A stretch of DNA of 64,000 nucleotides from a virus (Duplodnaviria > Caudoviricetes): the IMG/VR virus record IMGVR_UViG_3300035498_000732, positions 1-64,000 of that record; one strand, written 5' to 3'. This document shows, in pieces, positions 1-32,175 of this stretch (positions within the stretch are counted from its first letter, which is position 1; each line of letters begins with the position of its first letter). The translations under genes were made by a program, and so were the position numbers. The notes under the pieces are model-generated. The model ran no database searches. It was not told the DNA's origin and saw nothing but the letters and a program-made list of their open reading frames with translations.

Positions 1-300
1 GCTGTTCCCTACTCTACTCACTTCAGAGATTTCTCTCCTTATTTTACTCAGCAGTATGGTGCTGATTAGCTTTCGATAGCCGTCGATCAATCAAAAATTG
101 TAATTTTTGATTGAAGCTGATCTTACATTGTATCGGTACTTAGGATCTATCAATGATAGACTTTTATCTCACCATATACCATCCCAATACTTGTTTCTGA
201 CTTTCGTCTCCTTTCGGCAATTGGGCATTAGCAAGTTCCAGCAAATTTCGTACAGTAGTTTTAAGCTATGCATTGCTGCATAACCGGCCCTATTATGCTA
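1..300 (-). mobile_element. Group I intron (5' part; continues off window) in the RNAP beta' N gene
   Basis: ORF stops just after NRNPTLGYG. Exon-end GGCU can pair with GGCC (286-289), giving the U.G splice pair. P-like AAUUUGCUGGAA (~236-247) and Q-like AAUCAGCA (~60-67) are present. The region is non-coding and structured. Confidence 0.85.
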
Positions 301-1561
301 AGCCATATCCCAGCGTTGGATTGCGATTTATTAGAATTGGTAGTCCTCTGCCATCACATGAATTATCTATAATGGACTGGATAATTTCCTTTACTCTTGG
401 ATCTATAGAAATACTTGATTTATACCAGATATTATAAGCTTCATCAAATGAAACATTATAACTACGTCTAAGTATATTCACTATACGTTGCTCTAATACT
501 ATTACCAATTCATAATATGGAAGTATTACCTGGTCAATCTCAAGATTTGGATCTTGAATGATAACAGATCTGCCAGTAAAATTATATCTACCGGATACAA
601 GATTTCTAAAGATTCCTTTCTTACCCTCAAGAATGCTTACTACTTCATTATATAACTCCATATATTTCATCTGGAGTTTATAAAGATTCTGATTTTTCTG
701 TTCTTTATCACGATCGAATCTTGTTTTATTCTTATTAATAGAATGCACTATAGAATTCATCATATTATAAATTCCATTAGTACCTTCATATTGCATAGAC
801 TTTCCTGTGACTTGGAATGGTCTAAGATGAGTAGTATATACAGGAATAGAGTGAGTAAATACTTTATCTCTATCTTGTATTATCTGACTATAATACTCAT
901 ACTTAGATGGATTTCTTTTAGCATAGTATTCAAGGATTTCATCAAATCTATTAACAAAATCTATCATACCAATACCATAGAATGGTTCTCCTTTGGGACA
1001 TTCAGAGAGTTGAGTTACATGTCCATCTCTATCTTTCTCTCCCTGGACATTTAGAATATTATCTAATTTACTCTTTTTACCATATCCATTTCCAAATAGA
1101 AATTCTATCTGCATATATAAAATTGGATGAATAATCTGATGCTCATCAAGCACCAGCCAACCGAAATAACTAAAATCATCATCCATATATCTAACTCTAG
1201 TACCACACTTAGGACACATAATCCCATGATTGATTCTAGAATGTAGATAACCGCATTCACATTTATATCTATCTATGAATGGGTTTTGATCTCCCAAAGT
1301 CTGTCCAAACTTTGAAGAGAATATTCCATTAGGATCTTTAAGATCTTTCTTGATCCCCCTTGCCGCGGAACATATAAATCCTCTGCCCTCACGGATATCT
1401 TTCTCCATCTCTAAATCTAGATTGATCTTTTCCAATTGTGTAAAATACATATACATCGGATCATCCGGATATTGCATTGTATGCATAGGTTTATCAGATG
1501 GCGATGATATTCTTTGCATGAAATTAGAATAATCATTCATGTACTTTTCTGTAGTTGCCAT
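301..1561 (-). CDS. Multisubunit RNA polymerase beta' N-terminal subunit, exon 1 (probably non-virion RNAP)
   Basis: Zn-binding CECG..CPKCG, GKKGIFRNLVSGRYNFTGRSVI and LINRNPTL motifs. An early-type promoter lies upstream at ~2006-2016. Confidence 0.93.
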
Positions 1562-2164: not shown

Positions 2165-3406
2165 CTAATCATCCATAGAGAATGCTTTCCATGGATCCAT
2201 TTCTACTGTATGTACTACAGAGTCATGAAATGCTTTCATAGAAATATTTTTTAAGGTAGAAGGAATTACATCAGTCATTACACCTACATTTCTCATATTA
2301 GGTCCAAGTCTATACCATATATTTCCAGCGCATTTAGAACAGAATCCACCTTTGCTCTTACACATAGAAGAAAATCTGAACTTCACATTCTTTCCAATGT
2401 ACTTATCCATATTTTGAGAGGTAAGTTCTACTAAACTAGATCCTATTATCATCCAAGAATACATCCAATCATCTACATTCTTTTCAGTAAGATGTACTAT
2501 TACATAATTCTTAGTATGGCAATCAGATCCTTCTGGCAATAACTTAAGATGCTGTGTCATTGAAAGGAATAGCTTCTCCCAATATCCACCCATAGATGTT
2601 TTCTTACCTCTAGAGTATGGGCCAGCAGATAATGAATTGGCAAACATGGAATATTCATCTGCAGATACTCCATCCATATAATTAGAGAATGCAATATTAT
2701 ATGTCTTCTGGGCATTAGGATCAGGATTCTTCATGGCACCCTTCATGATATACATATTCTTGAAGTTGTTATCAATAGATCCACCTGCACCTGAATTGAA
2801 TCCATCCATTCCAGGGTCATTTCCGATATAATCTGTAGCATACTTTAGAAGTTCATTCTCCATATCTTCTACTACTTTTACATCACCTGCATCTATAGCA
2901 GCTTTATTCTTCTTAATAAGCTCAGCCTTTTTCTTATCTACCTTATCTGTTAAGGTAAGCATTTCCTCAGACCAGCTACCTGATAATACAGTAACAAACT
3001 TCATAAACTCTTGAGTTTTTTCTAGAAAATCTTTAAGATCATCTATAGTAATTCTATCTTCCATAAGAGCATATGATAATTTCTTCTGTATCTTTCCATA
3101 AGCTTTTTTAGTAATGGGATAATTTATATATCCTGTTACATGTGATACATGGGGTTCAATAAAATACTTATTGAATATCCATAATCCAGCAGTAGTGGTA
3201 AATGTATTTTTATTTGGTTTTCCACCTACTACGAATTTTCCAGGAGGTATTTCTATTGTGTCATATTGATTACAAGCATTATTACCATCAAATTCACCAA
3301 ATAAATCTAGTACAAATGATTGGCATACACTCTCCTCAGTCATATTGAGAAGAGTATCTATTACCTCCTGGTTTCGTATAGGCTTAGACACTCTGGTTTT
3401 AGCCAT
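2165..3406 (-). CDS. RNA polymerase beta' C-terminal subunit (probably virion RNAP)
   Basis: Bridge-helix-like SRGKKTSMGGYWEK, SDCHT, RFSSMC..CSKCAG, trigger-loop-like LKNISMKAFHD. Lies under a late promoter with a structural gene. Confidence 0.9.
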   Translation of the reverse strand: MAKTRVSKPIRNQEVIDTLLNMTEESVCQSFVLDLFGEFDGNNACNQYDTIEIPPGKFVVGGKPNKNTFTTTAGLWIFNKYFIEPHVSHVTGYINYPITKKAYGKIQKKLSYALMEDRITIDDLKDFLEKTQEFMKFVTVLSGSWSEEMLTLTDKVDKKKAELIKKNKAAIDAGDVKVVEDMENELLKYATDYIGNDPGMDGFNSGAGGSIDNNFKNMYIMKGAMKNPDPNAQKTYNIAFSNYMDGVSADEYSMFANSLSAGPYSRGKKTSMGGYWEKLFLSMTQHLKLLPEGSDCHTKNYVIVHLTEKNVDDWMYSWMIIGSSLVELTSQNMDKYIGKNVKFRFSSMCKSKGGFCSKCAGNIWYRLGPNMRNVGVMTDVIPSTLKNISMKAFHDSVVHTVEMDPWKAFSMDD

Positions 3407-9639: not shown

Positions 9640-9670
9640 GGGGTGCTGAAATGCACCCCTCATTTATTTT
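9640..9670 (+). terminator. Intrinsic terminator
   Basis: GGGGTGC/GCACCCC stem plus T-rich tail. Confidence 0.7.
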
Positions 9671-9707
9671 GAAATATGGATTTTCCTCAATTACATATTA
9701 TATATTT

Positions 9708-9805
9708 GAATAATGCAATAAGCATTTGGCGGATTCGCCGCCAATCATCTCTTTCACCTTATAAAGGGAAGTCTGTCTGTAATGGGCAGACTTCTTTTTT
9801 TTTTT
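9708..9805 (+). ncRNA. Candidate early small RNA
   Basis: Early promoter ~9688-9704, hairpin 9726-9744, CU-rich linker, terminator 9768-9805; no ORF. Confidence 0.6.
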
Positions 9806-9875
9806 GTAATTAAATGATTGATCGATAATATATTATACCTGTAGAGAGATGATACAATCAAAGGAGGAACAAGAA

Positions 9876-10742: not shown

Positions 10743-10790
10743 ATTTTAAAGAGGAAACTTGCTTGTAATGAAAGTGAGTTTTCTTTTTTC

Positions 10791-10935
10791 TAAGTTCCGT
10801 AAAAGTTCAATTTTTCAATTATATAATATCATTATGATAAAGGATAAGTAATAACGCTTATCTAAACTTGTTTGCTAAGGGGATCAGAATGATCTTAAAC
10901 GAATAACGCCCTTGGAGAAAGAGAGGTACATTATG
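10791..10935 (+). repeat. Promoter + structured leader repeat, copy A
   Basis: Near-identical to 11310-11446 and 31447-31588. Confidence 0.9.
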
Positions 10936-11256
10936 AAGAAGAAAGTATTAAACTATACTCCGCATGACATTAACTTGTTTCTGCAGGACGGGTCCACGAT
11001 GACTATTAAGTCATCTGGATCTGCTCGAGTATCAAGTACCGAGACAGTAGTATCTACTGATCTCGGTATCCCGGAGACAATGACGGTATACGGTGATGTG
11101 GTAGATCTGCCAGCCCCGGCAGATGATACTATCATCATCGTATCACGTCTTGTACTGTCACGTTGTCCTGATAGGCCTGATCTTCGGGTTCCTGGCCTGC
11201 AGGTACGTGATAGTGACGGAAAGGTAATCGGTTGCAAGTCTTTGGCTCGCAACTGA
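10933..11256 (+). CDS. Phage hypothetical protein (NYTPHDI family), higher GC than the genome
   Basis: GAGG RBS; terminator 11260-11291. Confidence 0.8.
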   Translation: MKKKVLNYTPHDINLFLQDGSTMTIKSSGSARVSSTETVVSTDLGIPETMTVYGDVVDLPAPADDTIIIVSRLVLSRCPDRPDLRVPGLQVRDSDGKVIGCKSLARN

Positions 11257-11309
11257 TTACAAAAAAGGATAGCTTCGGCTATTCTTTTTTCTATGATCCT
11301 GCTGGAGAA

Positions 11310-11446
11310 TGTAAAAATACTCTTTTTCAATTATATAATATTATAGTGATACAGGATAAGTAATAGGCTTATCTAAATTTGTTTACCAAGGGGACTATAA
11401 TAGTCTTAAATGAATAACGCCCTTGGAGAAAGAGAGGTACAGTATG
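11310..11446 (+). repeat. Promoter + structured leader repeat, copy B
   Basis: Homologous to copy A with compensatory stem changes. Confidence 0.9.
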
Positions 11447-11872
11447 AGTATTATAAGTAAATATGCTGTTGATGGCTTTAAGACAGCATCAGATATGATT
11501 ATTAATAAAAAGCCATGTGATATCACATATGATATCACGAATGGGTCTCCGTTTTATACGGAGCCCGACAAAAGTAGTATATATGCTACTTTCGATGCAT
11601 TAAGGGGTGTTCATTTACTCTTTAACAGCATCGATGGGATGAGTGATTTAGCGCTTCTCGACATTAGTGCTCACTCATTGGTAGTAGAGGCATATGTCTC
11701 TGCTGCAATATCAACGAATGATTGGCCGGATGATCCCTACGAGCTGGGTGATGGGTTACCTTGCGTGCCCATGTCCAAGTTATGTTGGGATTATCTTAAG
11801 AAGATCATCGATGACCTTCTTAAGAAGGGCTACACCATCGATGATGATTGGAGAAAGGCTATCTTCGGATAG
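11444..11872 (+). CDS. Hypothetical protein
   Basis: RBS supplied by leader copy B; terminator ~11884-11920. Confidence 0.75.
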   Translation: MSIISKYAVDGFKTASDMIINKKPCDITYDITNGSPFYTEPDKSSIYATFDALRGVHLLFNSIDGMSDLALLDISAHSLVVEAYVSAAISTNDWPDDPYELGDGLPCVPMSKLCWDYLKKIIDDLLKKGYTIDDDWRKAIFG

Positions 11873-11938
11873 TCCTTCTCCAGAAGGAGTTCACACCAAG
11901 TGAACTTCTTTTTTTTTTTTAATAGAAAGGAGTATGCC

Positions 11939-31405: not shown

Positions 31406-31446
31406 TAATAGTTTGGGTAGGCACTTTAGCCTACCCACTTTTTTTC

Positions 31447-31588
31447 TAAGTTCCGTAAAAGTTCAATTTTTCAATTATATAATATCATGGTAATACAGGA
31501 TAAGTAAGTGCTTATCTAAATTTGTTTACCAAGGGGATCATAATGATCTTAAACGAATAACGCCCTTGGAGAAATGGAGGAAACCATG
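31447..31588 (+). repeat. Promoter + structured leader repeat, copy C
   Basis: Near-identical to copy A, 20 kb away. Confidence 0.9.
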
Positions 31589-31747
31589 AGTGAAACAATG
31601 CATATTATTGATCAAATGGCCAATGCAAAGACTTCTAAAGAGAGGTTAGAGCTTAGCATAAAACTTGCCAAGGCTAATGATGTACCAGATGATAGAATTA
31701 TGAAGTCATCTGATGATTTAAAGGCATGGTTAGGAGGTGCAAAATAA
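31586..31747 (+). CDS. Small 53-aa early protein (not in ORF track)
   Basis: GGAGG RBS from leader; MSETMHIIDQMANAK... Confidence 0.7.
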   Translation: MSETMHIIDQMANAKTSKERLELSIKLAKANDVPDDRIMKSSDDLKAWLGGAK

Positions 31748-31926
31748 TGTCCGACTTTGAGGAAGAACTTCGTAAGGTTCACGAGCAGCGGATGGAGAAG
31801 ATTAATGAAGTCTGCTCCATAGCACTGCAGGACAAAATTACAGAGCAGGATTTCGAGCACATGAAAAGTGTGCTCGATTCCTTAAACACAAATCAATTAG
31901 GAGGTGTTGATTATGACAGATTTTGA
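31747..31926 (+). CDS. Small 59-aa early protein
   Basis: TAATG overlap; AGGAGGT RBS. Confidence 0.7.
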   Translation: MSDFEEELRKVHEQRMEKINEVCSIALQDKITEQDFEHMKSVLDSLNTNQLGGVDYDRF

Positions 31927-32077
31927 TAAAAAATATAATACACATGAGTTCGAAAAGCTCATGAAGGATCACGATGAAGGGCATCGTGATCCTGAGGCAT
32001 TGAAGAATTATTTCAATGCATGCCTTAATACCTATAATGGTACTGAGGGTAAAGAGATGAAAGACTACTTTAAGTAG
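31913..32077 (+). CDS. Small 54-aa early protein (not in ORF track)
   Basis: AGGAGGT RBS; MTDFDKKYNTHEFEKLM...; terminator ~32086-32118. Confidence 0.7.
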   Translation: MTDFDKKYNTHEFEKLMKDHDEGHRDPEALKNYFNACLNTYNGTEGKEMKDYFK

Positions 32078-32175
32078 AAGTCTATTGGAGCTCGCTGATT
32101 ATGGCGAGCTTCTTTTTTATCAGGGATTTTTTTTTTACATTTATATAATTATTAATAATTTGGAGGATAATAGTT

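Follow-up and report, generated by a model that had tools for sequence, protein, structure and literature searches.

Ahead of several unrelated genes, the 64,000-nt stretch of phage DNA analysed here (the window, which is the first 64 kb of the 126,688-bp IMG/VR virus record IMGVR_UViG_3300035498_000732) carries a repeated element of about 140–150 nt, in which a predicted early promoter is followed by a structured leader RNA. We favour the explanation, at a probability of roughly 60%, that this element serves an AR9/PBS1-like jumbo phage as a reusable module for the immediate-early expression of acquired accessory or anti-defence genes. The assignment of the phage follows from its split RNA polymerase beta-like gene (2168–3406, minus strand), which has the Bacillus phages Internexus, AR9 and PBS1 as its top matches (33% amino acid identity, E 2e-60 to 4e-60); the gene at 296–1561 (minus strand) also matches the Rpb1 domain weakly, and on this sequence evidence the source appears to be an uncultivated AR9/PBS1-like jumbo phage with AR9 as its nearest cultured relative. 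CheckV puts completeness of the record at about 52%, with about 48% of the genome absent from it. Given the Bacillus-infecting cultured relatives, the low GC (guanine plus cytosine) content of 34% and the strong Shine-Dalgarno sites, the host would belong to a Bacillus-related phylum.

A search of the whole record returned four copies of the element, A to D (E 2e-40 to 8e-77; Table 1): three lie in the window where a first-pass annotation, made by a model from the sequence, had placed them, and the fourth, copy D, was added from beyond it. The copies, of which the genome has at least four, are 86–100% identical to one another and, because their flanks are unrelated, the element is a true repeat and not a chance resemblance. 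Homology ends at the start codons of the downstream genes or directly after them (at 10933, 11444, 31586 and, on the minus strand, 104494, for A to D), as that annotation had also proposed; we refer to these genes as the cargo. Copies A and B are direct repeats around cargo A, 511–512 bp apart. At the upstream end, homology between copies A and C begins at 10784, and the T-tract after the gene upstream of copy A, with the next bases (TTTTTTCTAAGTTCC), is found in copy C as well.

The upstream third of the element is best interpreted as an early promoter for the virion multisubunit RNA polymerase of the phage. The 5' ends of AR9 transcripts have been mapped, and the sequence AAATATATATTAT-(6N)-G+1 is common to 41 early promoters used by the virion RNA polymerase (Lavysh et al., 2017, mBio, PMC5312081). 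All four copies present the core AATTATATAATAT, then six variable bases and a purine at the predicted +1 (G, G, A and A in copies A to D). This core agrees with the AR9 early consensus at 11 of 13 positions, and differs by one base (12 of 13 agree) from the 13-mer core of AR9 promoter P001, which lies within tttttcaattatatattat. Further upstream, a cgta with its G at -37 is present in about nine AR9 early promoters, and GTAAAA with G at -37 in all four copies. Identity among the copies is 100% in the core, 83% in the segment from -39 to -20, 69% in the 6-nt spacer and 34% upstream of -40; the element therefore varies where the AR9 consensus is free. The early promoter of the first-pass annotation is thus borne out by a match in sequence and register, in a phage that is itself AR9-like. 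By homology to AR9, transcription would start at 10836, 11348, 31492 and 104590 (minus strand); the predicted start lies 6 nt before the first stem, and not downstream of the stems, so all of the stems would be transcribed. A scan with the sigma-70 consensus gave no site ending at 10829, 11341 or 31485, and the TATAAT present in the element has no -35 hexamer at 16–18 nt from it.

Counted from the homology-predicted start, the leader measures 94–97 nt across the copies. Six unpaired nucleotides are followed, from predicted +7, by stem 1 (GGAUAAGU/GCUUAUCU), which has 8 bp with G.U pairs at both ends and a loop of 4–6 nt that differs in every copy. A U-rich linker of 11–12 nt then leads to helix 2, which begins at +40 and forms a continuous 12 bp: its 5' strand reads C(C/U)A(A/G)GGG and then GAUCA, a 3-nt loop leads to UGAUC, and on the 3' strand a 14-nt bulge, UUAAAYGAAUAAC(G/A), separates UGAUC from the closing arm CCCUUGG. 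The spacer AGAAA comes next, then the Shine-Dalgarno sequence (GAGAGG or UGGAGG) and 5–6 nt to the AUG. All of the stems named in the first-pass annotation (GGAUAAGU/GCUUAUCU; C(C/U)AAGGG/CCCUUGG; and, as the inner stem, GAUCA/UGAUC, for which copy B has GACUA/UAGUC) are present. Its statement that the last stem abuts the Shine-Dalgarno sequence is incorrect, since the 5 nt of AGAAA intervene before the core of that sequence. In the consensus fold the Shine-Dalgarno sequence itself stays single-stranded, and the alternative pairings that touch it are weak and unlike between copies.

Given no structure, RNAalifold returned exactly the same 20 pairs as had been specified by hand. With 20 pairs in four copies, 80 of 80 pair cells are canonical, against 27–47% when the partners are slid by 1–3 columns. 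Six paired columns vary, and all of the variation is compatible with pairing: in the inner stem of copy B two adjacent pairs are changed on both sides (U-A to C-G and C-G to U-A, giving GACUA/UAGUC), and G.U pairs arise once in copy A, where C-G became U.G, and once in copy D, where A-U became G.U. When the 27 observed substitutions were placed at random, all pairs were kept in at most 0.03% of 20,000 simulations, which assume independent copies and uniform rates. Folding z-scores range from -2.1 to -3.3. Mean pairwise identity is 93% at paired positions and likewise 93% in the bulge, 88% in the Shine-Dalgarno region, 78% in the linker, 72% in the spacer between Shine-Dalgarno and AUG, and 58%, with indels, in loop 1, which sits between invariant arms. 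The constraint acts on the sense-strand RNA and not on a DNA palindrome, because each G.U pair would become a C.A mismatch in the opposite strand; palindromes acting as DNA operators were rejected on these grounds, as both stems contain G.U pairs and copy B has a symmetric change, features that point to RNA.

Other ways in which the leader might work were considered and set aside. A closing helix between CAUGGU and the start-codon region, seen in minimum-free-energy folds of longer segments, has its 5' arm upstream of the predicted +1 and so outside the RNA; pairs that would make the linker an anti-Shine-Dalgarno sequence are weak and unlike between copies; and small upstream open reading frames (ORFs) in the leader are unconserved and have no Shine-Dalgarno sequence. 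As for an antisense partner acting in trans, no complementarity outside the copies exceeds 12 nt, and about 1.5 such matches are expected by chance, as estimated from the sequence lengths. The 12-nt string, CCAAGGGCGTTA, is complementary to the leader segment UAACGCCCUUGG and is part of a repeat present four times close to the end of the record (122770, 124424, 124878 and 126479). The pairing of UUGUUU with AAAYGA suggested in the first-pass annotation could form, with 26 of 28 cells pairing. It has no compensatory change: extended to UUUGUUU and AAAYGAA, it shows one G.U-compatible change (C to U, copy B), a terminal mismatch in copy A and an internal mismatch in copy D, and we regard this pseudoknot as possible but unsupported.

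Each copy heads a unit that is closed by an intrinsic terminator. The first-pass annotation described the cargo genes as unrelated and the first of them as GC-richer than the genome, and both statements agree with our results: the cargo proteins are mutually unrelated by comparison, and cargo A, at 0.472, has the highest GC content of the 128 ORFs in the record (mean 0.339, standard deviation 0.041), with D1 ranked third, D2 fifth, C2 ninth and B tenth. The cargo is apparently of foreign composition and seemingly imported. Neither cargo B nor D1 matched anything in Pfam, PHROGs, the PDB or the Atlas, and D1 likewise found nothing in a search of 5.8 billion proteins; C1 and C2 had no family match in our scans. 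Unit D consists of copy D and then two genes, D1 and D2, the second of which (record 103403–103891, minus strand) encodes a signal peptide and a Big_2 Ig-like domain, as expected of a secreted or surface-located protein. Directly upstream of copy D, the gene at record 104729–105196 (minus strand) is a weak paralogue of D1 (22% identity, E 6e-6) with an early-type promoter of its own (105265, minus strand) and a 69-nt leader with a hairpin from +7.

Cargo A belongs to the Crn4b family of ring nucleases and retains the catalytic residues. A profile built from 16 homologues matches Crn4b (PDB 9r7b) at E 7e-18 and Crn4a at E 1e-15. The AlphaFold (AF2) model of the protein, with a pLDDT (predicted local distance difference test score) of 95.9, is aligned by Foldseek to 9r7b at template-modelling (TM) scores of 0.82/0.78 and a root-mean-square deviation of 2.8 Å, and the only significant PDB structure matches of this model are Crn4 entries. 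The TPHD motif of cargo A aligns with TPHD of Crn4b and its VRD with the Crn4b arginine; T9, H11 and R92 of cargo A are invariant across 16 aligned family members, the catalytic residues being T13, H15 and R112 in Crn4a numbering (PMC12830947). Crn4b cleaves the cyclic oligoadenylates cA3 and cA4, and the copies found in phages, reported from 11 of about 28,000 phage genomes, have been proposed to be anti-CRISPR enzymes, possibly also directed against the cyclic oligonucleotide-based anti-phage signalling system (CBASS; PMC12830947). Cargo A is likely an anti-CRISPR enzyme and would be expected to break down the cA3/cA4 signals used by type III CRISPR or CBASS.

The distribution of the Crn4b gene extends beyond this record. 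An identical cargo A protein is encoded by four other contigs, and a 74%-identical Crn4b gene is found in two other jumbo-phage contigs (L037 and L038), in which the core polymerase subunit is 43% identical and the other matching genes 30–36% identical to those of the present phage. There, the gene is GC-rich, stands between unrelated genes and is preceded by an early-type promoter and a plain leader of about 45 nt. Because it is 74% identical amid genes at 43% and 30–36%, and in a different context, the Crn4b gene appears to move between phages, the structured leader seemingly being specific to the present lineage. On the opposite strand, an antisense ORF of 125 amino acids (aa; window 10953–11330, minus strand) overlaps cargo A and looks conserved in L037; most simply, its conservation is a by-product of that of the sense-strand Crn4b gene.

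Searches for relatives of the RNA motif gave nothing significant in any collection. A covariance model (R1) of the kind proposed in the first-pass annotation was built from the leader of the four copies; it recovers only these four in the record, and nothing significant in four related jumbo-phage contigs, in AR9, or in 30 loci sharing the stem-1 sequence. Rfam gave nothing at gathering thresholds across the window and, at E up to 10 over 10780–11460, a sole match to sraA (20.7 bits) on the opposite strand. Exact-pattern scans of IMG/VR gave chance hits only, as judged by eye and by the covariance model; there was one chance hit in the JGI metagenomes, none in species-representative bacterial and archaeal genomes, and no match by blastn in GenBank phages. 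In all of these searches, records very near this genome may be masked. The flanking protein has no close relative in IMG/VR. The RNA motif is so far confined to one genome, matches no described RNA family and is not yet generalisable.

In the explanation we favour, the injected virion polymerase would transcribe the module-headed units straight after infection, and the module would have been copied by duplication or recombination onto acquired genes. The leader would act in cis on the mRNA, its most likely role being one in which the 5' hairpin and the strong, exposed ribosome-binding site protect and load the message; a 5' stem-loop together with ribosome binding stabilises leaders in B. subtilis (reviewed in PMC3997798). 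The present leader resembles the Bacillus 5' stabilisers (the aprE leader stem-loop with its ribosome-binding site, and the polypurine stabiliser of phage SP82) in having a hairpin near the 5' end and a strong exposed Shine-Dalgarno sequence (PMC3997798), and differs in its six unpaired 5' nucleotides and in a second, larger structured domain that has no counterpart there. The bulge and part of the linker are near-invariant, which suggests something more specific than protection, and these segments may, in addition, offer a regulator a place to dock.

Several observations weigh against this explanation. Six unpaired 5'-terminal nucleotides exceed what is usual for classic 5' stabilisers. Both the start site and early transcription are predicted by comparison with a phage that shows only 33% identity in the polymerase gene. 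The leader was first described as covarying, which holds insofar as every substitution at a paired site keeps pairing and the G.U pairs make the fold strand-specific; the covariation proper amounts to one event, confined to two neighbouring pairs of a single paralogue among the four of one genome, and a shuffle control attained the observed covariation in 46 of 500 trials, a much weaker result than that of the simulation because the double change sits in one paralogue only. Related phages express the Crn4b gene without the structured leader, which is therefore not needed for that gene as such. Finally, no regulator was identified: HTH_3 has no match in the 127-kb record, which amounts to about half of the genome, and no helix-turn-helix or ribbon-helix-helix family was listed when cargo A, B, C1, C2, D1 and D2 were scanned with Pfam.

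Comparison with known systems places the element among the known kinds of phage regulatory cassette, yet outside the promoter-early stem-loop (PeSL) family and the described RNA families. Its predicted early promoter resembles those of AR9 in its AT-rich 13-mer, free 6-nt spacer, purine start and cgta near -37, in a phage with AR9-like split RNA polymerase subunits. AR9 has some early leaders of 99–124 nt, and a shared early 5' untranslated region (UTR) motif was predicted by its authors (PMC5312081). The long AR9 leaders g087 and g104 are unrelated in sequence to the present leader, and R1 finds nothing in AR9. The T4-type PeSLs, to which the element was first likened, are also repeated intergenic cassettes that end at the Shine-Dalgarno sequence or start codon, before orphan early genes and after terminators, with direct repeats flanking a small gene. 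They have host sigma-70 promoters and occur some 50 times per genome (Arbiol et al., 2010, PMC2839356; Comeau et al., 2014, PMC4122927), and their stem-loop is situated within or around the promoter, no further than just past the -10 box before the start, and is a terminator or attenuator of upstream transcription (PMC2839356; PMC4122927). The present element, in contrast, has a predicted phage-polymerase promoter, stems at +7 and +40 of a transcribed leader of about 95 nt, and four known copies; the terminators upstream of the copies differ from one another and lie outside the repeat. Having neither a sigma-70 promoter nor a stem-loop terminator integrated with the promoter, the element does not belong with the PeSLs, and shares with them the 3' end at the Shine-Dalgarno sequence or start codon and the orphan cargo.

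Morons of lambdoid phages are autonomous insertions of promoter, gene and terminator. The units described here are likewise self-contained, bounded by terminators and composed of compositionally atypical accessory genes; unlike morons, several of them share one promoter-leader, and their expression is predicted to be lytic and early and not lysogenic. A further likeness is to the 5' UTR motifs bound by Aca2 and Aca1 in acr-aca operons, in which hairpins also directly follow the start (here a predicted one) and precede an anti-defence gene (PMC13551039). Such motifs are found with strongly expressed early anti-defence genes, and one motif can precede several operons (PMC13551039). The present element differs in that no Aca gene or promoter inverted repeat was found, its hairpins are mutually unrelated, and the phage would use its own polymerase.

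The Aca precedent lends some weight to a reading that would refine the expression module rather than exclude it, and that we hold to be rather unlikely: the leader would be an RNA operator, to whose hairpins or bulge a phage-encoded or virion-delivered protein binds, as do Aca2 and Aca1, shutting off or timing the translation of a small anti-defence regulon after an initial burst. The bulge (93%) and much of the linker are conserved beyond the needs of the fold alone, a single leader at the head of four separate units suits coordinate control, one cargo is a probable anti-defence enzyme, and Aca-bound structured 5' UTR motifs sometimes stand before several neighbouring operons, whose uncharacterised downstream genes have been proposed as anti-defence candidates (PMC13551039). 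Against it, no Aca-like gene was found in or beside the units, nor any HTH_3 match in the 127-kb record, about half of the genome; the two hairpins have no sequence in common, unlike paired Aca2 sites; no inverted repeat overlaps the promoter; and the Shine-Dalgarno sequence is outside the structured part. It is unlikely, too, that the main role lies in the DNA, with the repeats serving as portable homology in the manner of PeSLs, so that recombination moves, deletes or swaps the genes between them and the RNA fold is secondary. Direct repeats such as A and B around cargo A are the arrangement that yields PeSL mini-circles (PMC2839356), the cargo is orphan and GC-atypical, the context of cargo A differs in related phages, and variant sites are shared among the copies in ways that conflict with one another (A with B and C with D at +1 and in the Shine-Dalgarno region; A with C and D at the inner stem). 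Four copies, however, compare poorly with the roughly 50 per genome of PeSLs, and the structure-preserving substitutions and strand-specific G.U pairs indicate selection on RNA. For the earlier label of a portable cassette the support is indirect only, from the terminator-bounded units, the orphan GC-atypical cargo and the Crn4b gene in another context in distant phages.

A recent segmental duplication of one promoter region, in which the leader would have no RNA function beyond its ribosome-binding site, could account for the high identity, the single genome and the lack of any homologue found elsewhere, and related phages do manage with a short leader. We consider this quite improbable because the divergence is so uneven, a pattern not expected of neutral drift after duplication: loop 1, the promoter spacer and the spacer between Shine-Dalgarno and AUG are at 58–72% with indels, whereas the stems are at 93% with all changes compatible with pairing. 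Least credible of all is that the leader senses a ligand as a riboswitch or cleaves itself as a ribozyme, with an H-type pseudoknot between UUUGUUU of the linker and AAAYGAA of the bulge as its basis. Such a 7-bp pseudoknot is sterically plausible and pairs in the 26 of 28 cells mentioned, the C-to-U change of copy B keeping a G.U pair, and the unpaired segments are conserved. The Rfam search at E up to 10, with ribozyme and riboswitch models included, assigned the leader to no family; the internal pseudoknot mismatch in copy D is uncompensated; the Shine-Dalgarno sequence is free and no terminator follows, leaving no expression platform; the cargo has no common function that one ligand could explain; and the element is confined to one genome. 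A bolder reading, which seems to us unlikely, is that the leader represents a previously undescribed class of cis-regulatory RNA in phages. It would be a pseudoknotted operator that a phage factor reads, or with lower likelihood a small molecule, and would give burst-then-shutoff control of an anti-defence regulon in jumbo phages that use their own polymerases.

The features of the four copies and their units are collected in Table 1. Elsewhere in the record there are about 20 other candidates for early-type promoters, most with leaders of 22–45 nt, and several of these leaders open with a 5' hairpin. At two of the candidates (record 66798 and 68208, both minus strand) the transcripts would start with strong 11-bp hairpins at +1 or +2 (-9.8 and -15.8 kcal/mol), and 5'-terminal hairpins may be a general trait of early mRNAs in this phage. 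A dense intergenic region of the window (9640–9850) has early-type promoter motifs on both strands (9688 minus, 9708 plus and 9843 plus) and three terminator-like hairpins.

Table 1. Copies of the element and the units they head, in order along the record. Window and record share the same numbering.
Feature	Position	Strand	Details	Basis
Weak terminator-like hairpin and T-tract after gene upstream of copy A	10753–10796	+		read from sequence
Copy A	10784–10936	+		sequence search
Copy A promoter	10797–10835	+	predicted; distal GTA -37 to -35 within CCGTAAAAG; core AATTATATAATAT 10817–10829 (-19 to -7); 6-nt spacer 10830–10835	
Copy A leader, 97 nt	10836–10932	+	predicted +1 G 10836; stem-loop 1 10842–10863; linker 10864–10874; bipartite helix 10875–10915	
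Copy A leader, inner parts	within 10836–10932	+	inner hairpin 10882–10894; 14-nt bulge 10895–10908; Shine-Dalgarno GAGAGG 10921–10926	folding, alignment
Cargo A	10933–11256	+	107 aa; Crn4b-family ring nuclease; GC 0.472	profile and structure match
Terminator of unit A	11261–11296	+	GGATAGC-TTCG-GCTATTC and T-tract	read from sequence
Copy B	11311–11447	+		sequence search
Copy B promoter and leader	11311–11443	+	core 11329–11341; predicted +1 G 11348; stem 1 11354–11374; CCCUUGG 11420–11426	
Cargo B	11444–11872	+	142-aa orphan; GC 0.408	no Pfam, PHROG, PDB or Atlas match
Intrinsic terminator of unit B	11882–11912	+		
Terminator of upstream nucleoside 2-deoxyribosyltransferase-like gene	31414–31437	+	directly before copy C	
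Copy C	31440–31590	+		sequence search
Copy C promoter and leader	31440–31585	+	core 31473–31485; predicted +1 A 31492; stem 1 31498–31517; CCCUUGG 31563–31569	
Cargo C	31586–32077	+	three coupled small ORFs: C1 31586–31747 (53 aa), C2 31747–31926 (59 aa), C3 31913–32077 (54 aa)	
Intrinsic terminator of unit C	32087–32112	+		
Copy D	104491–104627	-	in the record, beyond the window	whole-record search

The repeated cassettes of T4-type phages rely on the host polymerase, and structured 5' UTR operators are known from the acr-aca operons of temperate phages; the element described here joins features of both, in a phage with its own RNA polymerase. As an expression module, it would allow the immediate-early accessory genes of an uncultivated jumbo phage to be recognised by a sequence tag and, because one of the tagged genes encodes a Crn4b-family ring nuclease, rare among phages, the other tagged orphans are reasonable anti-defence candidates. 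Were the leader indeed a new class of RNA, the motif would mark cargo B, C1–C3, D1 and D2 as previously unknown anti-defence proteins.

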